64,000 nucleotides of DNA from Escherichia coli (GTDB taxonomy: Bacteria > Pseudomonadota > Gammaproteobacteria > Enterobacterales > Enterobacteriaceae): the NCBI RefSeq assembly GCF_044647545.1, contig NZ_CP172818.1. One strand, written 5' to 3'. Below are positions 18,561 to 58,737 of this stretch, one piece after another. The notes under the pieces were generated by a model. The model was not told the DNA's origin. It worked only from the letters and a program-made list of their open reading frames with translations, and did not search any database. Position 1 is the first letter of the stretch, and each line of letters begins with the position of its first letter. Made by a program: the position numbers and the translations under genes.

Positions 18561-18583
18561 AGTTTCCCGAACAACTTCAACTA

Positions 18584-22206: not shown

Positions 22207-22239
22207 AAAAAACCTGCCATCGCTGGCAGGTTTTTTTTT
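22207..22239 (+). terminator. Rho-independent terminator downstream of typA
   Basis: AAAAAACCTGCCATCGCTGGCAGG followed by TTTTTTTTT. Confidence 0.7.
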
Positions 22240-22405
22240 GCCTGTCGTGAGCGCACACCAATGCGAGTATCTCCCTTATAAGTCTGTGGTTACGTCAATA
22301 GAGAGCTTTGTCACAATTATCTGCAAAGTCATACGCCGTTAATTGCTTTCTTTTTTGGCGTAAGCGTAAGATGCTTCATCTGGTTTAAACCAAAAGGATT
22401 AAACA

Positions 22406-23115
22406 ATGGCGGAGAATCAATCCACCGTAGAAAATGCAAAAGAGAAACTGGATCGGTGGTTGAAAGATGGCATCACCACGCCGGGTGGAAAACTCCCTTC
22501 AGAAAGAGAGCTGGGAGAACTGCTGGGCATTAAACGTATGACGCTGCGCCAGGCGTTGTTGAACCTCGAGGCAGAATCCAAAATCTTCCGTAAGGATTGT
22601 AGGGGTGGTTCGTGACCCAGCCGCGATTTAATTACAGTCCGGAGCTGTCAGCGAGCTTTCAGCGGGCCGCAATTGAGCAAGGACGAGAGCCTTCCTGGGG
22701 GTTTACCGAGAAAAACCGTACCAGCGATATTCCCGAGACGCTCGCGCCACTGATCGCAGTGACACCATCAACTGAACTCTATCGCATCACCGGCTGGGGG
22801 GCGCTGGAAGGACATAAAGTTTTCTATCACGAAACATATATTAATCCTGAAGTTGCTCCGGGCTTTATTGAACAACTTGAAAACCACTCATTTTCTGCAG
22901 TCTGGGAAAAGTGCTACCAAAAAGAGACGGTAGTAAAAAAATTGATTTTCAAACCCGTCAGAATGCCGGGCGATATCAGCAAGTATCTTGGCGGTTCTGC
23001 GGGTATGCCAGCGATCTTAATTGAAAAGCATCGCGCCGACCAGCAAGGCAATATTGTCCAAATAGATATTGAATATTGGCGATTTGAGGCCGTAGACCTC
23101 ATCATTAATCTGTAG
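22406..23115 (+). pseudogene. yihL: GntR-family regulator YihL, split by an apparent 1 bp deletion near 22601-22610
   Basis: ORFs 22406..22615 (69 aa, winged HTH) and 22612..23115 (167 aa) lie in different frames; combined length equals the 236 aa expected for intact YihL. Confidence 0.7.
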
Positions 23116-23122
23116 GTGTTTT

Positions 23123-24103
23123 ATGGTGACAATAAATAACGCAAGAAAGATTCTACAACGTGTCGACACTCTTCCTCTTTATTTACATGCTTATGCCTTT
23201 CATTTAAATATGCGGCTGGAAAGAGTGTTGCCTGCTGATTTACTTGATATCGCAAGTGAAAATAATCTACGTGGCGTCAAAATCCATGTTCTCGATGGCG
23301 AGCGTTTTTCTCTTGGTAATATGGACGATAAAGAACTCTCTGCCTTTGGGGATAAAGCCCGCCGTCTGAACCTTGATATTCATATTGAAACCAGCGCCTC
23401 AGATAAGGCATCTATTGACGAAGCCGTCGCCATCGCGTTGAAAACTGGGGCATCGTCCGTACGTTTTTATCCACGTTATGAAGGTAATTTGCGCGACGTA
23501 TTATCGATTATCGCTAACGACATTGCCTATGTACGGGAAACGTATCAGGACAGCGGCCTGACTTTTACGATCGAGCAGCATGAAGATTTAAAAAGTCATG
23601 AGCTGGTGTCGCTGGTCAAAGAAAGTGAGATGGAATCTCTTTCCTTACTGTTTGATTTTGCGAACATGATCAATGCAAATGAGCATCCCATCGACGCTTT
23701 AAAAACGATGGCACCGCATATTACCCAGGTCCATATCAAAGATGCCTTGATCGTTAAAGAACCGGGTGGCCTGGGTCATAAAGCCTGTATTTCAGGTCAG
23801 GGTGATATGCCGTTCAAAGCGTTATTAACGCACCTTATCTGCCTGGGTGATGATGAGCCGCAGGTGACGGCATATGGCCTGGAAGAAGAGGTTGATTACT
23901 ATGCGCCGGCGTTCCGCTTTGAAGACGAAGATGATAATCCGTGGATCCCTTATCGCCAGATGAGTGAAACACCATTGCCAGAAAATCATTTACTGGATGC
24001 GCGGTTACGTAAAGAAAAAGAAGATGCAATTAATCAGATAAATCATGTGCGTAACGTACTACAACAAATCAAACAAGAGGCAAACCATCTTCTGAACCAC
24101 TAA
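23123..24103 (+). CDS. yihM: Sugar phosphate isomerase/epimerase (xylose isomerase-like TIM barrel) YihM
   Basis: 326 aa ORF; synteny yihL-yihM-yihN. Confidence 0.85.
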   Translation: MVTINNARKILQRVDTLPLYLHAYAFHLNMRLERVLPADLLDIASENNLRGVKIHVLDGERFSLGNMDDKELSAFGDKARRLNLDIHIETSASDKASIDEAVAIALKTGASSVRFYPRYEGNLRDVLSIIANDIAYVRETYQDSGLTFTIEQHEDLKSHELVSLVKESEMESLSLLFDFANMINANEHPIDALKTMAPHITQVHIKDALIVKEPGGLGHKACISGQGDMPFKALLTHLICLGDDEPQVTAYGLEEEVDYYAPAFRFEDEDDNPWIPYRQMSETPLPENHLLDARLRKEKEDAINQINHVRNVLQQIKQEANHLLNH

Positions 24104-24204
24104 TAAGTTTTAACTCATACGCAGTTAATAAAACCATTCCATATGAATGGTCGGTATCTTATTGCCTTTAAAACAGTGATTTTAAAAATCGCTTAGGGGA
24201 TGTT

Positions 24205-25470
24205 ATGCTCACGAAAAAGAAATGGGCGTTATTTAGTCTATTAACACTGTGTGGCGGTACAATTTATAAATTACCGTCGCTGAAAGATGCGTTTTATATC
24301 CCGATGCAGGAATATTTCCATTTGACCAATGGTCAAATTGGTAATGCTATGTCGGTAAACTCATTTGTCACCACAGTGGGCTTTTTTCTGTCTATTTATT
24401 TTGCCGATAAACTACCGCGCAGATACACCATGTCATTCTCACTCATTGCGACAGGATTACTGGGTGTTTATTTGACGACAATGCCGGGGTATTGGGGCAT
24501 CCTCTTTGTCTGGGCGCTATTTGGCGTTACTTGCGACATGATGAACTGGCCGGTCTTGCTCAAGTCGGTAAGTCGATTGGGCAATAGCGAACAACAAGGT
24601 CGGTTGTTTGGCTTCTTCGAAACAGGGCGTGGCATTGTCGATACCGTGGTGGCATTTTCTGCGTTGGCAGTATTTACCTGGTTTGGCAGTGGCTTATTAG
24701 GTTTTAAAGCAGGCATCTGGTTCTATTCCCTTATTGTGATTGCCGTAGGCATTATTATTTTCTTTGTCCTGAATGACAAAGAAGAGGCACCGTCCGTTGA
24801 GGTGAAAAAAGAAGACGGAGCATCGAAAAACACCAGTATGACCTCGGTGCTGAAAGACAAAACTATCTGGCTTATCGCTTTTAACGTCTTCTTCGTTTAC
24901 GCGGTTTACTGTGGCCTGACATTCTTCATTCCATTCCTGAAAAACATCTATCTATTGCCCGTTGCGCTGGTGGGGGCTTACGGCATCATTAACCAATACT
25001 GTCTGAAAATGATTGGTGGACCGATTGGTGGCATGATTTCAGATAAGATCCTGAAATCGCCAAGTAAATATCTATGCTACACCTTTATCATTAGTACCGC
25101 TGCGCTCGTACTGTTGATTATGCTGCCGCACGAAAGTATGCCGGTCTATTTAGGGATGGCATGTACGCTGGGCTTTGGCGCGATAGTCTTTACACAGCGA
25201 GCCGTATTTTTTGCACCTATCGGCGAAGCAAAAATTGCTGAAAATAAAACAGGTGCGGCGATGGCGTTGGGTAGCTTTATTGGTTACGCTCCGGCGATGT
25301 TCTGCTTCAGTCTGTATGGCTACATTCTGGATTTAAATCCGGGGATTATTGGCTACAAAATCGTGTTTGGCATTATGGCCTGCTTCGCATTCAGTGGTGC
25401 GGTGGTTTCCGTAATGCTGGTTAAGCGTATTAGCCAACGTAAGAAAGAGATGCTGGCGGCTGAAGCTTAA
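24205..25470 (+). CDS. yihN: MFS transporter YihN
   Basis: 421 aa ORF with ~12 hydrophobic segments. Confidence 0.85.
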   Translation: MLTKKKWALFSLLTLCGGTIYKLPSLKDAFYIPMQEYFHLTNGQIGNAMSVNSFVTTVGFFLSIYFADKLPRRYTMSFSLIATGLLGVYLTTMPGYWGILFVWALFGVTCDMMNWPVLLKSVSRLGNSEQQGRLFGFFETGRGIVDTVVAFSALAVFTWFGSGLLGFKAGIWFYSLIVIAVGIIIFFVLNDKEEAPSVEVKKEDGASKNTSMTSVLKDKTIWLIAFNVFFVYAVYCGLTFFIPFLKNIYLLPVALVGAYGIINQYCLKMIGGPIGGMISDKILKSPSKYLCYTFIISTAALVLLIMLPHESMPVYLGMACTLGFGAIVFTQRAVFFAPIGEAKIAENKTGAAMALGSFIGYAPAMFCFSLYGYILDLNPGIIGYKIVFGIMACFAFSGAVVSVMLVKRISQRKKEMLAAEA

Positions 25471-25475
25471 TTAAT

Positions 25476-25553
<78 letters not shown>

Positions 25554-31236: not shown

Positions 31237-31554
31237 AAATAATCTCCATAGAGTATAAAGCTAATATTTCATGCCATCCTGTTGTTACAGGTTTCATTAA
31301 TTAAAGATTGTGTGCTATAAATAAAACCCCATAAGTGATATATAAAAACTTTTTCAGCCCGGCGGATTGCCGCCATTTTTAACCAAAAATGCCAGTTACA
31401 ATAATAACTAACAATAAACGGAGCAGAATCCAGCCGGGAATTCCCATCCCTTTTATCAACATAGAACCGGAGGCAATCAGCAACAAAAAGACCATCACAC
31501 GGAACACTTTGACTGAAAGCGTTTATGCACATATCTCCAACAAGCGAACCGAGA

Positions 31555-31945
31555 ATCAGGAAAACAAAAAACACCAGTTAAAAAAAGAAACATCAAAATC
31601 CCCCCCCCCCGCCCCCCCCGCCCCCCTTTTTGGGGAAAAAAAGGGTCCGAGGCCCCGAATCCCCCGGGCCCAATTCCAGCATACCTACACCCCCGCCCCG
31701 CCCCCCGCCCCGCTCGCCGCTACTCGCCGATACGCCGCGACCATAACGTCAAAACGACAGACAAGAAATAAACATAAAAAAAAAAAAAAAGAAAAGGATC
31801 CCCCTACCCATTAAAAACGTACATACAAACACACAAACAAACAACAAAAAAAAAAATAACGCCCCCCCAACACAAAAAAAAAAACCCCAACAAAAAGAAA
31901 AAAAAAAAAAAAAAAAAAAAAAACACCCCCCAAAAAAAAAAAAAA
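31555..31945. other. Anomalous low-complexity tract (A+C only; homopolymer runs of C and A up to ~26 nt)
   Basis: Directly visible: CCCCCCCCCCCGCCCCCCCCGCCCCCC, AAAAAAAAAAAAAAAAAAAAAAAAAA and similar; G nearly absent for ~250 bp; no plausible coding frame. Confidence 0.9.
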
Positions 31946-32008
31946 CATAATATTTCCTGTTGTGTAAATACAACCCTAAACAATGATCTCGTTCTTTTCT
32001 TAATAAAA

Positions 32009-32920
32009 TTAATTGTGCTGCCCGTGAATATTAAAAAACAGGCGGTGCGTTTTTCCTGGTTCCAGTAATAATAAGTCGATACCTGAATTAAAGGCGTTAG
32101 GCGGGCAACTCATAGGTTCAACTGCCAGTCCCTGACGCTGTAATTTTTCTCCGCTATAAACCTGCACCCAGGGTTGATCGGAACAGAGGCTCACCGAAAG
32201 CGCCTGTTGTGGATGGGTAATGGTTATTTCCCACAGATCATTAGCGGTTTTAAAGGTATGGTCTATTTTTGTCGCGGCTATTTTTGTCGCCCGCGTGAAA
32301 TTTAAATTCAGCTCATCAACGTGGTGAAGCGTTGTCGGATTTGCGTGCTCATCGACGGCATAAACCTGTTCTGCCGGAAGCTGGAAAAGATAGTCATCAA
32401 CAGATGTTAAGTTGCAGGTTAAATAAGGATGAATACCCACACCATAAGGTGCGGTCACAGTACCAATATTCTGGCTTGCGATCTCAACGGAAAGGCCCGT
32501 GCGAGCGTTGAGCGAATAAACAACCTGCGAAGCCAGCATAAACGGATAGCCGTAACTGGGCGGCAGAAAAGCTGTCAGGGTAACGCTGGTGGCGGTTAAT
32601 TCGCTAATTTGCCAGTCACGCCAGGCAAGCAGCCCGTGAATAGCGGCTTTTGAACCATGTTCATTAATGGGTAACTGATATTCCTGCCCCTGATAGCGAT
32701 AACAGCCGTTGGCGATCCGGTTCGGCCACGGAATAAGCACTTTACCCAGATGCGCCAGCGGCATCTCTTCGGGTTTGTGCGGGATGACTAAATGACAACC
32801 CTGAAAGGTTAATTCAGCCAGACCAGCACCAACCGTCACGATAGTCGCGTGATAATCCCCCGCGGCAAGTGAAACGGTTTGTCCACTGCAATGCATGTTG
32901 GTGATTTGCATACGAGGCAC
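32009..32920 (-). CDS. yihR: Aldose 1-epimerase family protein (sulfoquinovose mutarotase) YihR
   Basis: 303 aa ORF; synteny between yihQ and yihS. Confidence 0.85.
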   Translation of the reverse strand: MPRMQITNMHCSGQTVSLAAGDYHATIVTVGAGLAELTFQGCHLVIPHKPEEMPLAHLGKVLIPWPNRIANGCYRYQGQEYQLPINEHGSKAAIHGLLAWRDWQISELTATSVTLTAFLPPSYGYPFMLASQVVYSLNARTGLSVEIASQNIGTVTAPYGVGIHPYLTCNLTSVDDYLFQLPAEQVYAVDEHANPTTLHHVDELNLNFTRATKIAATKIDHTFKTANDLWEITITHPQQALSVSLCSDQPWVQVYSGEKLQRQGLAVEPMSCPPNAFNSGIDLLLLEPGKTHRLFFNIHGQHN

Positions 32921-35137: not shown

Positions 35138-36034
35138 TTACATTTTTACTTTGGCAGTCATCCCGGCACTGACACGGACCTGTTCCAGAATGGCGGACCA
35201 GTCCTGGCGACCGCGACCCGCTGCGCGCGCCTGGCTATAAACCTCCCGTGAGGCGGCCCCCAGCGGCATTGGCACATGCAGCTGGTTGGCGACATCAAGG
35301 GCGATACCAAGATCCTTATGGGCAAGATCGATCATGAAGGCGGGAGAAAGATCCCCGCTGAGGACTTTGTTTGGCCAGGAAGTGGTGAAGTGGCCTTTAC
35401 CGGCGGCGGTACCGCTCATCACCTTGACGGCAACATCGAAGGGAAGATTCAGGGCTTCGCACAAAACGGCGGCTTCTGCCGAAAGCGCATTGAGCGCGAT
35501 GCTCATGTAGTTGTTGATGAGCTTAACGCGGATCCCCATGCCCGGACCGCCCGCGTTGATCAACTCACTGCCCATCGCCATCAGGATCGGTGTGGCGCGT
35601 TCAACTTGTTCAGCGGTGCCGCCAGCCAGCAGTAACAGAGTACCGGTAATGGCATTTGCAGAAGTACGGCCTACCGGAACATCCATCATGCTGAAGCCTC
35701 TGGCCTGCATATCAGCAATCAATTTATCGGTTTGCAGTGGGTGGATGGTCGACATATCAATGACCAGCGCATCGGAAGATAAGCTCTCACAGACACCGTT
35801 TTCACCGAACAACACGTGACGCACCAGATCGCCATTCGGCAACATGGTAATGATAAATTCGGCACCTTTAGCGGCCTGCGCCGGGTTGGCGGCGGGAGTC
35901 GCACCTTTGTCTACCAGATGCCGCACAGCTTCGGCGTTCACATCAAAGACGCGAAGTTGATGCCCTTGCTGCAATAAATTGCTCGCCATTGGCGAACCCA
36001 TTTGCCCTAAACCGATAAACGCGATTGCTGCCAT
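35138..36034 (-). CDS. yihU: 3-sulfolactaldehyde reductase YihU (NAD-binding beta-hydroxyacid dehydrogenase family)
   Basis: 298 aa ORF, N-terminal Rossmann motif [10 protein letters not shown]. Confidence 0.9.
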
Positions 36035-39915: not shown

Positions 39916-40901
39916 GCCAGCTTCCAGGGTTGTCACGGGAAACAAGAGAGAGTATCGCTATGTATCACCTTCGGGTTCCACAAACAGAAGAAGAATTAGA
40001 GCGTTACTATCAGTTTCGCTGGGAAATGTTGCGTAAGCCCCTGCATCAACCGAAAGGTTCGGAACGCGACGCGTGGGATGCGATGGCGCATCACCAGATG
40101 GTCGTCGACGAGCAGGGTAATCTGGTGGCGGTAGGCCGACTGTATATTAATGCCGACAATGAAGCGTCCATTCGCTTTATGGCCGTTCATCCCGACGTGC
40201 AGGACAAAGGGTTAGGAACGCTGATGGCGATGACCCTCGAATCTGTGGCGCGTCAGGAAGGTGTTAAGCGCGTGACCTGTAGCGCCCGCGAAGACGCGGT
40301 GGAGTTTTTCGCCAAGCTGGGGTTTGTTAATCAGGGAGAAATCACCACGCCAACCACCACGCCGATTCGCCATTTTTTGATGATTAAACCCGTTGCCACT
40401 CTGGATGATATTTTGCATCGCGGCGACTGGTGCGCGCAGCTGCAACAGGCGTGGTATGAACACATCCCGCTGAGTGAAAAAATGGGCGTGCGCATTCAGC
40501 AATATACCGGGCAAAAATTTATCACCACCATGCCGGAAACAGGCAATCAGAATCCGCATCACACGCTGTTTGCCGGGAGTTTATTCTCGCTGGCAACGCT
40601 CACCGGTTGGGGGCTTATCTGGCTGATGCTGCGCGAACGCCACCTCGGCGGAACGATTATTCTGGCGGATGCGCATATCCGCTATAGCAAGCCGATTAGC
40701 GGCAAACCTCATGCGGTAGCCGACCTTGGTGCCTTAAGCGGCGATCTCGACCGTCTGGCGCGTGGACGAAAAGCACGGGTGCAGATGCAAGTAGAAATCT
40801 TTGGCGACGAGACGCCGGGTGCAGTGTTTGAAGGCACGTATATCGTTCTGCCCGCGAAGCCATTTGGCCCGTATGAAGAGGGCGGGAACGAAGAAGAGTA
40901 G
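39912..40901 (+). CDS. yiiD: GNAT acetyltransferase / thioesterase fusion protein YiiD (FabY)
   Basis: 329 aa ORF with GNAT region ([15 protein letters not shown]) followed by hotdog-like C-terminal domain. Confidence 0.85.
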
Positions 40902-40904
40902 CGT

Positions 40905-41729
40905 TGGCAGGTGCATTGCACTCCTTGCCCCTGTCATGCGGTGATACAACGCTTCACCTTCATCGCAAAGTGGGTCGTATTCAGCGGTAATGATATGTAC
41001 AGGTGGCAAGCCATTGAAATCATCGCGCCAAAGAGGGCTGGCTTCAGGATGCCTGCGTTCAATGCCTGGCAGGTACATCTCAAAGCCGCTCAGTAAAGTG
41101 TCGCGTGTGATGATGTAATCGTGACGATTGCGTATGTAGCTTTCGAAATGCGCAGTCGCATCAAGCATGGGATAAATTAAGATGACCGAGTTGTGCCGGT
41201 TGCCACTCGCCAGCACGCTTTAATCGCAAAGCAGTTACCAGCGCCAGATGTCCGCCCGCACTGTCACCGGCAAGAGTTATCCGTTGTTTATCAACGCCGA
41301 GTCGTTCGGCGTGTTGCCGACTGAATTCTGCACCTCGTTGCGCATCATCATGGGCGGCGGGGAAAGTATGTCCGGTGCCAGCCGATACTGGACGGCAATA
41401 ACCCGACATTGCCCGTAATAGGCTAACTGGCGCAGCTGGTTGTCGTGAGTTGCGAACCCGCCGCTAACAAAACAGCCACCGTAGTAATAAATTATCGTCG
41501 GGAGTAATGTCGGGGCATTCAGCGGTGACACTATTCGTAAGGTCATCGCTTCAAGTTCGATAGTCTGAATATCTACCCGCGTTTCTGTCTCACCCGCAAG
41601 GACAGCGCTGGCGATATAGCCCTCCCTGCGCTGCGCAATACTTTGTTGACGCGATGAGGGGCGACCCGCAGCGATAAACTCTTCGACTAACTCTGCAATT
41701 CCTTTTTCAGTGCCATAGTAGAACTCATT
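40905..41729 (-). pseudogene. Decayed alpha/beta-hydrolase (hormone-sensitive-lipase family esterase, Aes-like) gene remnant
   Basis: Minus-strand fragments in three or more frames: ..IIYYYGGCFVSGGFATHD.. (oxyanion-hole region), ..ITLAGDSAGGHLALVTALRLK.. (GDSAG nucleophile elbow), ..HIITAEYDPLCDEGEALYHRMTGA.. (acid-residue region); no single frame covers the gene and the 3' end runs into yiiD. Confidence 0.6.
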
Positions 41730-41945
41730 TTGCTGTATGAATGTACAGTTTTATACACCCGTTTTTACTGGATGGATACAGGGAAATTCACGGGCGTGAA
41801 AAATCTGGAAAGCGCCTCGCAAATGTAAAGACAAACCCGGCAGAGATGTGGTTTTGCTGGAGCACTATCAGTAAGCTAGTGGTTTCAAGGGTACGTCAAT
41901 GACGTACAGAAGGGGTTTATTTATCTAAGCCAATGGCGTATAATT

Positions 41946-42256
41946 ATGCTCTTCATCGAAACGGAAATTTTTACTGAAGATGTTCAAAAACTGCTGACCG
42001 ACGATGAATTCAGTCGTTTTCAGTTTTTCCTGGCCTTGAATCCTGACTATGGTGAGGTAATACCTGAAACTGGTGGGTTAAGAAAGGTTCGATGGGTGTC
42101 AGGAGGAAGGGGAAACGTGCTGGTGTCAGGGTTATTTACTTTCATCAGGTTAAACATTATGAGATCAGATTACTGCTTATTTATCGTAAGGGTATTAAAG
42201 ATAATATCTCTCCCCAGGAAAAAGCAATGCTCCGGTTGTTAAATACGAGGTGGTAA
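41946..42256 (+). pseudogene. RelE/ParE-superfamily (HigB-like) toxin with an internal frameshift
   Basis: Frame 1 gives MLFIETEIFTEDVQKLLTDDEFSRFQFFLALNPDYGEVIPETGGLRKVRWVSGGRG..; the +1 frame continues ..GKRAGVRVIYF..EIRLLLIYRKGIKDNISPQEKAMLRLLNTRW and stops at TAA directly abutting the antitoxin ATG. Confidence 0.6.
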
Positions 42257-42547
42257 ATGGATAAGGCACTTTTTGAGCGGTTGACTCACAGCATGGCCCA
42301 GATGAATGAAATTATTGAAGGAACGCGACAGCCTTCGCGGACTTTTGAAGTTGATGCTATGAAAATCAAAGAAATACGCCGCGCTTCAGGGTTGTCACAA
42401 TCTAAATTTGCCGATCTTATTTCTGTAAGCGTAGACACGTTGCGTAACTGGGAGCAGGGGCGACGTTCGCCGACCGGGCCTGCAAAGGCTTTGCTGCGAG
42501 CGATTGCCAATGATCCGCAACATGTGCTGCAAGCACTTAACCGTTAG
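42257..42547 (+). CDS. HTH (XRE-family) HigA-like antitoxin
   Basis: 96 aa ORF with HTH region IRRASGLSQSKFADLISVSVDTLRNWEQGRRSP; translationally coupled (TAAATG) to the upstream toxin frame. Confidence 0.7.
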   Translation: MDKALFERLTHSMAQMNEIIEGTRQPSRTFEVDAMKIKEIRRASGLSQSKFADLISVSVDTLRNWEQGRRSPTGPAKALLRAIANDPQHVLQALNR

Positions 42548-43150
42548 AGGCATGGTTATGCCATACAGAAAGCACCAGCATTCAGAACTCCTGTGAAAGC
42601 GGCGTAGTGCCACCTGCTCAGGAGTTTTGCTATGACCCGTAATCAGTGCTGACCGTTGCCACCCTATGATGCGATTAAAAAAACTCATCGTCGCGCCGAT
42701 GATTGACGTCAATGCTATCGGATGATACCGGGGGTGTTCCAGAAAGATCCAACTTTCCCGAACTGTTACCAACAAAATTATAACGATGAGCAAGTTAAGA
42801 CCGGTTGGTAGCAGTACTGACCGGTCTGTGATGGATGATTAATTTCACCTTAAATCCGGGTGCTGTTAGGATGCTGACATTTTTCGGCTACACCATTCAG
42901 ATTATGCAAATAAAGATCCAATCAAAAAATAAACATCCCTGTATATAATATATTTATAGCACCCATATCTCATCCTGGGCGATAACCCAACCATTTTTGA
43001 TTAACAAATGAAACAACTGCAACGTTCTTATTATTTCTGGAAAACGTCTCGCAAAAACAAAACAGCATGCAAAAATCCGCTTTTTTTAAATGATTTTTCG
43101 GCGTAATTTTCGCACATACATTAATGAGTAATATATGTAAGGTATTGGTA

Positions 43151-43369
43151 ATGGCGATGAATACGGTTTTTCTTCATTTATCAGAAGAGGCAATTAAACG
43201 GCTGAACAAGCTTAGGGGCTGGCGTAAGGTTTCACGATCTGCAATTTTACGCGAAGCGGTTGAGCAATATCTGGAGCGGCAGCAATTTCCGGTGCGTAAA
43301 GCAAAGGGTGGCAGGCAAAGGGGGGAGACAGTAGTTGTTGATGATCAGTGTAAGGAGCATAAGGAATGA
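43151..43369 (+). CDS. yiiE: Ribbon-helix-helix (CopG-like) small regulator YiiE
   Basis: 72 aa from MAMNTVFLHLSEEAIKRLNKLRGWRKVSRSAILREAVEQYLERQ inside ORF 43124..43369. Confidence 0.75.
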   Translation: MAMNTVFLHLSEEAIKRLNKLRGWRKVSRSAILREAVEQYLERQQFPVRKAKGGRQRGETVVVDDQCKEHKE

Positions 43370-43578
43370 CAAAAAATTTATTATTCTTGAATATAAAAAC
43401 CAGATGCCCTTATTCTGGTATTAATACAAGGCTGTTTTACTTGAACTTATAATAACTGCAACTGTTACATCATATCTGGAAAACGCCTCGCGAAATACGA
43501 GAGTTTGGAATAGCAGGTGTCGTCATACCCTATGAACTGTAATCCGGGCGACCAGCGCCACCCGGAAAACGTCAGAGA

Positions 43579-55656: not shown

Positions 55657-56103
55657 TTATGAGCTGAGGGTTTGATTTAACAAAGCAAGTACCTGGTCGG
55701 CGTCGCCCTGTCGCAGTTGGTTGATAAAATCCTGGTGGATAATTTTGCGGCACAGCGTGCCGATGATTTTGACCTGTTCCTCTTCGCCACTTTGTGGCAC
55801 GCCGAGGCAGATCCAGCAATTGACGTCTTCGCCATCGCTGGCCTGCCAGTCAATGGCCTGCGTTTTGCGGGCGAATAACACGAACGGTTGTTTAACGCAG
55901 GCGCTTTTACCGTGCGGCACGGCGACACCGGAACCAAATCCCGTGGAGTGCATTTTTTCGCGCAGCAGCAGGGTTTGCAGGAACTGGTGTGAGTCGGTGA
56001 TAAAACCGTTTTGTAACGCCATTGTCGCCAACTGCTTCAGAACGGAATAAGCGCCATTGCCCTGAATATTCAGGTCAATACAGCTTGCAGTAAGTGCTGC
56101 CAT
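55657..56103 (-). CDS. frvA: Fructose-like PTS EIIA component FrvA
   Basis: 148 aa from MAALTASCIDLNIQ..; EIIA(Fru/Mtl) family with conserved His region (GVAVPHGKS). Confidence 0.9.
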   Translation of the reverse strand: MAALTASCIDLNIQGNGAYSVLKQLATMALQNGFITDSHQFLQTLLLREKMHSTGFGSGVAVPHGKSACVKQPFVLFARKTQAIDWQASDGEDVNCWICLGVPQSGEEEQVKIIGTLCRKIIHQDFINQLRQGDADQVLALLNQTLSS

Positions 56104-56539
56104 TATTGGATTCCATGAAAAAATATAATAGTTAATTGTAACGGCGGGGCGGTTTTGTGATGAGCGCGGATATGTCGTGAAGTCGTGACAATATAAGGCA
56201 GAGTGAAGGATAAATTTTGCGGTGTAAGGCACATATTGATGGGTAAAATAAAGCAGTGAATAAAAAATCATTATTTAATGATGTTGTGAATGTTTAACTG
56301 CCGCACATGTTTTGCAGCAAGGTTATTTATATTTGTGGCTTATGAGTCAGCGTGAATTATATCTAATATTTTTAACGATATTTGGTTAAAAACGGCACTA
56401 TTGTTTATTCCTCAGTTCCAGAAATCAGCGGATTTACTCATATTATACGATACTATCCATCGCCTCTAAGTTGATTAAAAATTCGAAATCACACCTTATA
56501 TTTCTCTATAACTATTCCTTTTGAAACATCTCTTTTTTT

Positions 56540-57125
56540 GGGGAAGAAAAAAAAAAAAAACATTTGTTTGGGGAGGAGAGGGAAAAAAAAAAATTAAGGG
56601 AACAACGAGATTGTGGAAGAAGCCGGAGAGAAAAAAGCGGCAAAAAAAGAGAGAGAGGGGGAAAAAAAGCAGACAAAAAAAGGGAGACGGAAAAAGAGCG
56701 CGAGAAGGGGAAAAAGAGGAGAAGCGGGGAGCGAGAAAAAAAAACCCACCTCTCTTCTTCTCTGGGAAAAAAAAGCGGGAAAATAAAGGGAAAAGAAGGG
56801 GGGAGAAGAGTGGAGAAGACCACAAAAGAGAGGAGTGTTGTTGGAAAGAGAAGAAGTCGCGGGGTCCCCCGCAGGGGGGAGGGGGAGAAAAAGGGGTGTT
56901 TTCGCAAGAAAAAGAAGAAGGAAAGAAGGGGGGAGTGCCGGAGGAAGTGTGAGTAGAAAAACGAATGAGGGGGGAGCTATATGAAAGAAGGGGCGGGGGC
57001 AGGGGGTCATTCGGAAAAAAAAAAGAATGTTGAAAAAAAAGAAAGAAAAGGAAAAATTAAAGAAGAAAAGAGGAGGGGAGGGAGAAAGAAAATTCGGGAT
57101 GCGGGGCAGGAGGGTGCGCGGTGCT
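56540..57125. other. Anomalous ~590 bp polypurine (A+G) low-complexity tract
   Basis: Directly visible: GGGGAAGAAAAAAAAAAAAAA..GGGGAGGAGAGGGAAAAAAAAAAA..; plus strand almost devoid of pyrimidine runs; overlapping ORFs in several frames encode only low-complexity K/E/R/G or P/S/F/L peptides. Confidence 0.9.
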
Positions 57126-57152
57126 GGATATTTTCCGGCACTTCGCAACTCA

Positions 57153-57467
57153 TTAAGGCAGGTAAAACACTTCTTGCAGCTCGCTACTGACTGGGCTGTT
57201 ATCCGGGTTAGCTGGCATAACGTCGGTCATATATTTCCACCAACGTTGGCAAACATCAGTACTGGCTACCGCATTCCACCGTTCTTCAGATTCAATCTCT
57301 ACCGTGGCAAACAGCAGATTACGCGCTTTGTCGAGGTAAATGGCGTAGTTATGTGCACCGTGAGATTTCAACACTGCTTCCAGTTCCGGCCAGATTGGAT
57401 TATGCCGACGCTGATACTCTTCGTGGGCGTCGGGGTTAACCTGCATGACAAAGGCTTTGCGGATCAT
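57153..57467 (-). CDS. rhaM: L-rhamnose mutarotase
   Basis: 104 aa [41 protein letters not shown].. Confidence 0.93.
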
Positions 57468-58319: not shown

Positions 58320-58737
58320 TTGGACGTCCGTGCCTGTTGCCGGATGTACGATCTGTAGGCCGGATAAGGCACTCGTGCCGCATCCGGCAATCAATGCCTG
58401 ATGCGACGCTGTCGCGTCTTATCAGCCTACAACTATTGCCGACCCTAGCCGGATATGGCGCTCGTGCCGCATCCGGCAATCAATGCCTGATGCGACGCTG
58501 TCGCGTCTTATCAGGCCTACAACTATTGCCGACCTGTAGGCCGGATAAGGCACTTGTGCCGCATCCGGCAACAATGCTGATGCGACGCGTCGCGTCTTAT
58601 CAGGCCTACAACTATTGCCGACCCGTAGCCGATATGCGCTCGTGCCGCATCCCAATCAATGCCGATGCGACGCTGCGCGCTATCAGGCCACAACAGCCGA
58701 CCCGAGGCCGGAAAGGCACGGCCGCATCCGGCAGTGT
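58320..58737. repeat. Tandem REP/BIME array (~4.5 units of ~85 bp) in the rhaD-rhaA intergenic region
   Basis: Repeated GCCGGATAAGGC.CTCGTGCCGCATCCGGCAATCAATGCCTGATGCGACGCTGTCGCGTCTTATCAGGCCTACAACTATTGCCGACC; distal copies progressively lose bases. Confidence 0.8.

Follow-up and report, generated by a model that had tools for sequence, protein, structure and literature searches.

The purine-rich stretch between frvA and rhaM in this Escherichia coli sequence is, with a probability that we put at roughly 93%, an artefact of consensus or assembly in a publicly deposited genome: a database error and no biological element. Judged by its alignment, what stands there is the corrupted form of a normal accessory gene, which encodes a RafY-type carbohydrate porin. 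The analysis covered a window of 64 kb, the whole stretch of DNA under study, and found residual colinear homology to that gene, divergence confined to patches, an error spectrum tied to the contig and recurrence of the defect in the same assembly. An earlier note, made from the letters alone, had preferred an assembly or sequencing artefact, and our results support it in this; its view that the native intergenic sequence had been replaced has to be given up, as the tract runs colinear with a 1,395-bp RafY-type glycoporin gene, of which it is a degraded copy.

Composition and limits of the tract

The polypurine tract lies where it had been reported, with base counts over 56540–57125 of A 258, G 221, T 55 and C 52 (82% purine on the + strand). 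Positions 56540–57115 have the lowest complexity anywhere in the window. In 200-nt windows across the full stretch, the purine fraction reaches its maximum of 0.875 at 56540, about 7 s.d. from the mean of 0.513 (s.d. 0.053), and the 3-mer entropy of the tract, 4.70 bits, lies about 11 s.d. under the mean of same-size segments (5.81 ± 0.10). Purine skew and complexity in sliding windows, the check that had been proposed, are thus extreme at the tract. The runs quoted earlier, among them G followed by A14 and GGGGAGGAGAGGG, are present in the sequence. The description of the plus strand as almost entirely A and G holds for its purine richness but goes too far, given that 18% of the tract is pyrimidine, with a pyrimidine block at 56745–56762, and that the longest pure purine run is 34 nt.

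Across the six frames the tract holds no real ORF, and the low-complexity peptides that had been described for every frame are what is found. No periodic structure was detected, Tandem Repeats Finder returning only short imperfect A/G repeats, and terminal repeats were not found in the tract. A search against Rfam gave no significant family and a single match at chance level (mir-329, E 0.42). A BLAST search of the tract alone against complete E. coli genomes and plasmids returned no match, a negative that is weakened by the low-complexity filter, owing to which a flanked 1.7-kb query was preferred. Among 5,426 complete genomes, not one matched this longer query over 80% or more of its length at any single place.

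The two edges differ in character. On the right, alignment to strain FDAARGOS_497 places a sharp junction at 57115/57116, and identity to relatives resumes at 57116, which moves the end of the tract inwards from the 57125 first given. The return to 100% identity is abrupt and falls 5 nt beyond the stop codon of the native porin. Of the flanks, both described as normal in the earlier note, the right one deserves the term, being identical from 57116 save for an extra TT; the left one does not, since it decays from 56406 onwards and 18 of the 24 deleted bases in its onset zone (Table 1) are G.

The native locus

In K-12 and many other strains the spacing between frvA and rhaM is only ~300 bp, and in the window K-12 homology stops at 56235. 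The AT-rich sequence at 56230–56545, which corresponds to the porin upstream region, was found in 2,545 of 5,426 complete E. coli genomes (~47%). FDAARGOS_497 and IAI39 carry between frvA and rhaM a 1,395-bp + strand CDS annotated as ‘carbohydrate porin’ (WP_000749944.1), ending 40 bp short of rhaM. Its product belongs to Pfam family PF16966 (Porin_8), the RafY-type glycoporins, with an E-value of 3.7e-154; NCBIfam gave no family for this protein or for the native TauE protein considered below. The locus is shared by near-identical ST648-type relatives, and by sequence identity the window as a whole is ST648-like E. coli.

Agreement with these relatives is otherwise close. Positions 36000–56400 are 99.8% identical to FDAARGOS_497 and its relatives, and stretches of 0.8, 3.7 and 15.6 kb are 99.99–100% identical to FDAARGOS_497, the 15.6-kb stretch with a single indel and zero substitutions. 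The differences are clustered in patches with identical flanks, such that more than 400 local changes sit within otherwise undiverged DNA. At the porin locus itself, position, orientation and flanks are those of FDAARGOS_497 and IAI39, the upstream sequence is ~100% identical up to 56405 (a T deletion at 56253 and a T>A change at 56374 being the only differences from FDAARGOS_497 over 56235–56405), and downstream of the stop codon the sequence is again identical. The native porin start codon maps to ~56552.

Past the return of clean sequence by 26 nt, at 57142–57143, the window has an extra TT (GGCAC-TT-CGCAAC) that is absent in both FDAARGOS_497 and IAI39; it may be the mark of a join or a natural indel.

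Table 1 Features at the frvA–rhaM locus and related patches, with the retention of native bases along the porin gene.
Feature	Position	Strand	Basis	Native bases kept (A, C, G, T)	Window/native length
Second garbled tract, TauE/SafE sulfite-exporter CDS (minus strand) decayed to A/C	31308–31946	+	colinearity with FDAARGOS_497
frvA (PTS fructose-like IIA), intact left neighbour	55657–56103	-	error-free alignment to frvA of FDAARGOS_497
Porin island, left part (porin upstream region), essentially clean	56235–56405	+	matches FDAARGOS_497
Onset zone, nearly G-only dropout	56406–56539	+	24 single-base deletions vs FDAARGOS_497
Polypurine tract, judged to be the 1,395-bp porin CDS in garbled, compressed and still colinear form	56540–57115	+	global alignment, piece order
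Decay zone	56401–56539			0.95, 0.94, 0.40, 0.97	0.85
Decay zone	56540–56650			0.90, 0.23, 0.73, 0.34	0.69
Decay zone	56651–56760			0.91, 0.39, 0.79, 0.22	0.78
Decay zone	56761–56900			0.59, 0.25, 0.66, 0.17	0.47
Decay zone	56901–57115			0.42, 0.08, 0.43, 0.10	0.27
Spurious 69-aa ORF of the garbled sequence, WP_400165097.1	56981–57190	+	exact-sequence look-up
Porin island, right edge, clean	57116–57152	+	100% identity to FDAARGOS_497 save extra TT
rhaM (L-rhamnose mutarotase), intact right neighbour	57153–57467	-	104-aa ORF; aligns to reference rhaM
Third patch, REP/BIME array between rhaD and rhaA	58425–58721	+	single-base deletions only vs FDAARGOS_497

Residual colinearity with the porin gene

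Compared with the native RafY-type glycoporin gene, the tract lacks an open reading frame, is skewed to A and G and has lost protein-level similarity (tblastn, E 1.4). No ORF in it encodes Porin_8, the defining feature of the RafY glycoporins (PF16966). Homology is nevertheless evident in the DNA. The longest common subsequence of tract and native gene (539 against 532 ± 2.6 after shuffling) is barely above control; this statistic was too permissive and was replaced by affine alignment with block-shuffle controls. Global alignment of the tract to the porin gene then scored 388, compared with 337 ± 9 for 30-nt block shuffles of the tract and 328 ± 10 for shuffles of the native gene (z 5.4–5.8).

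The order of the remnants agrees with this. When ten 60-nt pieces were placed singly by local alignment, seven fell in rising gene order, as far as ~57000, while the three that were out of order scored at control level; for the first eight pieces Kendall tau was 0.86 (p 0.002). Remnants can also be seen by eye in colinear succession from 56540 (ggaacaacg, tggaagaa-gcc-gga, gcagaca-aa, ccacctc and ctatatga-aaaga-gggc-gcgggc).

A directional, base-selective error spectrum

The errors begin at ~56406 as dropouts of G, after which C and T are lost and runs of A and G become inflated, as where A14 stands in place of native ATAATGAAAAAATCGA. In the onset zone 12 of 30 G were kept, against 30 of 32 C (Fisher p 6e-6). 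Loss of G but not of C is a strand-asymmetric, base-selective dropout. Compression accompanies the loss of bases: the ratio of window to native length runs along the locus from 1.00 through 0.85, ~0.7 and 0.47 to 0.27, and the tract with its decaying left edge measures 710 nt in place of 1,572 nt of native sequence. From frvA to rhaM the window has about 1.05 kb of intergenic DNA, against about 1.9 kb with the gene intact.

The garbled sequence has entered the protein databases. An exact-sequence look-up identified the 69-aa ORF that extends from the tract over the 3' end of rhaM, a gene read from the other strand, as WP_400165097.1 (UniRef100_UPI0037DDDD2D), ‘hypothetical protein [Escherichia coli]’. 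Among ~15 billion proteins this entry forms a 90% cluster of one member, from one contig of 4,499,902 bp. As the ORF is made by the tract and equals a RefSeq protein, the tract belongs to the deposited assembly. The remaining nine of ten candidate ORFs of the garbled tracts have no exact match in the protein collection.

These results bear on the origin of the tract as foreign or synthetic DNA unrelated to the locus, be it vector, eukaryotic contaminant, mobile element or computer-generated filler, which we regard as extremely improbable. A composition unlike that of E. coli would suit such an insertion, as would the matchless BLAST search of the tract alone, a negative weakened by the filter noted above. 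However, the tract is colinear with the gene proper to exactly that position, and its left boundary is gradual, with no discrete junction; for these two reasons we exclude a foreign or synthetic insert. The absence of terminal repeats, coding capacity, periodic structure and a significant Rfam match likewise speaks against it. Nor is the tract a mobile element, having a gradual left boundary, no real ORFs and no plasmid match. Generated filler, which the earlier note had offered as one option, finds no support in a tract that is present in an NCBI assembly and whose 69-aa ORF is a RefSeq protein of a deposited E. coli contig.

The same defect elsewhere in the window

The earlier note took the composition of the tract to be singular in its surroundings, which is not so: an A/C-rich second low-complexity tract lies at ~31310–31946. 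It is colinear with a segment of FDAARGOS_497 (L004, 1845–2720) in which an 876-bp TauE/SafE gene stands between yihQ and yihR. Here too G drops out first (23 of 41 G kept, against 34 of 36 C; p 1.6e-4), and the decay grows rightward, with runs of C11, A15 and A26 and near-pure poly-A at the end, until 100% identity is regained from the CAT start codon of the gene at 31946/7. The patch also holds an error-free stretch of 80 nt at 31451–31530, and its length ratio is non-monotonic (0.92, 0.99, 0.90, 0.73, 0.90, 0.42).

A third patch affects the REP array between rhaD and rhaA, where the deletions come in the order G, then T/C/T, then five of G, then 13 of T. It stops sharply at 58722, from where the sequence is unique. 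All three larger patches decay from left to right in window coordinates, whatever the strand of the gene, and all lie within segments that vary in structure from strain to strain and are missing from K-12 or variable there: two accessory islands (31254–32018 and 56235–57152) and the tandem REP array. In FDAARGOS_497 (NZ_CP033850.1) the counterparts of the two islands lie approximately at 1635618–1636652 and 1661034–1662813.

Smaller collapses were seen at two further places, both on GC-rich hairpins. At 2939–2945 the final ~10 nt of 5S rRNA together with the terminator hairpin, 49 nt in FDAARGOS_497, are reduced to the 5 nt CCACC, leaving the 5S rRNA truncated as written; this is probably a further collapse at a contig-break or hairpin site. 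At 18562–18571, between glnL and glnA, the window lacks ~38 nt that FDAARGOS_497 has, with a GC-rich hairpin (CCCGGCG...CGCCGGG), and a run of A3 is shortened by one A. The K-12 glnL–glnA intergenic region has a longer, different insert (the GlnZ region).

Two other regions depart from the relatives in milder ways. The accessory region at 40894–43507 (alpha/beta hydrolase, hypothetical protein, nadS) departs from all ST648-type genomes in small, clustered differences, of which several are changes towards A (as at 41909–41923, 42203–42208, 42741–42753 and 43504–43507), and its best identity among complete genomes is at most 98.8%. These differences may be a mild form of the same artefact or natural variation. 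At 22237–25550 the window has K-12-type yihL-yihM-yihN, where FDAARGOS_497 has the STM4011–STM4015 radical-SAM island. We considered this segment as a further artefact and rejected it, as its differences from IAI39 are ordinary spaced transitions that indicate natural variation. Single-base deletions were observed within it at 22601 and 25486.

An improbable reading: the tract as real DNA

The sequence might be genuine, the porin gene of this isolate having decayed to a purine-rich pseudogene by some strand-biased process of deletion or mutation. The sequence is present in a deposited, RefSeq-annotated assembly, and natural decay of accessory genes does occur. We nonetheless consider this origin most improbable and hold to an artefact, because natural decay would have to produce, in 1.6 kb, several hundred microdeletions selective for the base, together with homopolymer expansions, while neighbouring DNA remains undiverged and substitution-free over 15.6 kb in comparison with relatives whose porin gene is intact. 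The same polarised decay is met in an opposite-strand gene and in a REP array, with a polarity that tracks the contig and not the gene, and the sequence was met neither in 5,426 complete genomes nor elsewhere among 15 billion proteins. We know of no mutational mechanism that removes only G, then only C and T, on one strand. That all three patches are real, accessory genes and REP arrays having been collapsed very quickly by a strand-oriented, base-selective deletion (for instance by repair synthesis that skips template bases), is a conjecture to which we give hardly any credence.

The tract does share with natural polypurine/polypyrimidine sequences of the H-DNA-forming kind a purine bias of one strand over hundreds of bases. 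It is not of that kind, having purine runs of at most 34 nt, mirror-repeat arms of at most 11 nt and an origin in coding sequence, and being conserved in no relative among the 5,426 complete genomes.

How the artefact may have arisen

In draft assemblies, pile-up consensus and polishing can fail over long insertions and where the structure varies. We tentatively propose, at somewhat less than even odds, that a failure of this kind, with stacked insertions, was the source of the tract. The reads would have carried a long insertion relative to the backbone under polishing or correction, and the inserted bases would have been piled up from the left without mutual realignment. The reads would then have slid out of register, with only locally dominant bases reaching a majority and the other columns being dropped, until the next backbone position restored the register. 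Such an insertion is suggested because it fits the polarity, the clean prefix (54–171 nt), the growing compression and the abrupt re-registration. The patches resemble such consensus failures in being directional in contig coordinates and confined to islands or repeats, and in their clean prefix, compression, homopolymer inflation and abrupt re-registration. As to a K-12-like backbone, the garbled zones lie inside the islands, and the island borders do not coincide with the zone edges.

A toy simulation (40 reads, ~0.7% indels, left-justified stacking, majority threshold 0.4–0.5) reproduced several of these features qualitatively. The clean prefix was ~100–140 nt, against the 54–171 nt observed; the output for the porin island measured 799–1,359 nt and for the TauE island 573–836 nt (observed, 881 and 693 nt); and homopolymers reached 12–30 nt, compared with A14 and A26 in the window. 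The base bias was missed, the simulation predicting A~T-rich output for the porin where the real tract is A/G-rich and has lost T. Both the composition bias and the loss of particular bases (first G, then C/T or G/T) set the patches apart from consensus failures as simulated. The simulation likewise gave neither the G-only dropout at the onset nor the perfect 80-nt stretch in the TauE patch, and stacking leaves unexplained that two right ends lie within 5 nt of CDS boundaries. A test for local majority (a ‘mode filter’) was clear for the TauE patch (0.42–0.48 against a control of 0.27) and marginal for the porin tract (0.31–0.32 against 0.28); it used a coarse anchor interpolation and is not leaned upon. 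A literature search for ‘hallucination’ artefacts of basecallers or polishers gave nothing specific.

A second route, which we think rather unlikely though well above the natural and foreign origins, is the tail of a single read of low quality, such as a Sanger read continued past its resolving range, that was joined untrimmed to the next contig in gap closure. Peaks merging at poor resolution would yield compression and blocks of homopolymer, and signal from weak dye channels would be lost. The progressive and one-directional decay, the compression that rises along the tract and the sharp right join are what this route would give, and the base-specific, strand-asymmetric dropout suggests evidence from a single strand. 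Untrimmed low-quality read tails, such as those of Sanger reads, show this same progressive loss of resolution, blocky homopolymers and channel-like dropout on one strand up to a sharp join. The other small collapses, at sites where contigs typically break (the 5S rRNA 3' end with its terminator, a GC hairpin, the REP array), and the extra TT 26 nt beyond the join also favour it. The TauE patch, however, is at odds with a read tail, as it recovers in the middle, where two bad stretches enclose 80 nt free of error, and its compression is non-monotonic. Moreover, the dropped base differs from patch to patch, and a read tail leaves unexplained why unique genes should be the gaps of an assembly.

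Implications

The finding matters for data quality, and its biological interest is small. A deposited E. coli assembly holds several stretches of garbage consensus, and at least one meaningless ORF, WP_400165097.1, has become a ‘hypothetical protein’ of RefSeq and UniRef. One-directional decay in structurally variable segments, with base-specific dropout, homopolymer inflation and an abrupt return of identity, could serve as a signature in the screening of assemblies. Pan-genome or gene-loss analyses would count two intact accessory genes, encoding the RafY-type porin and the TauE/SafE exporter, as lost or as pseudogenes.
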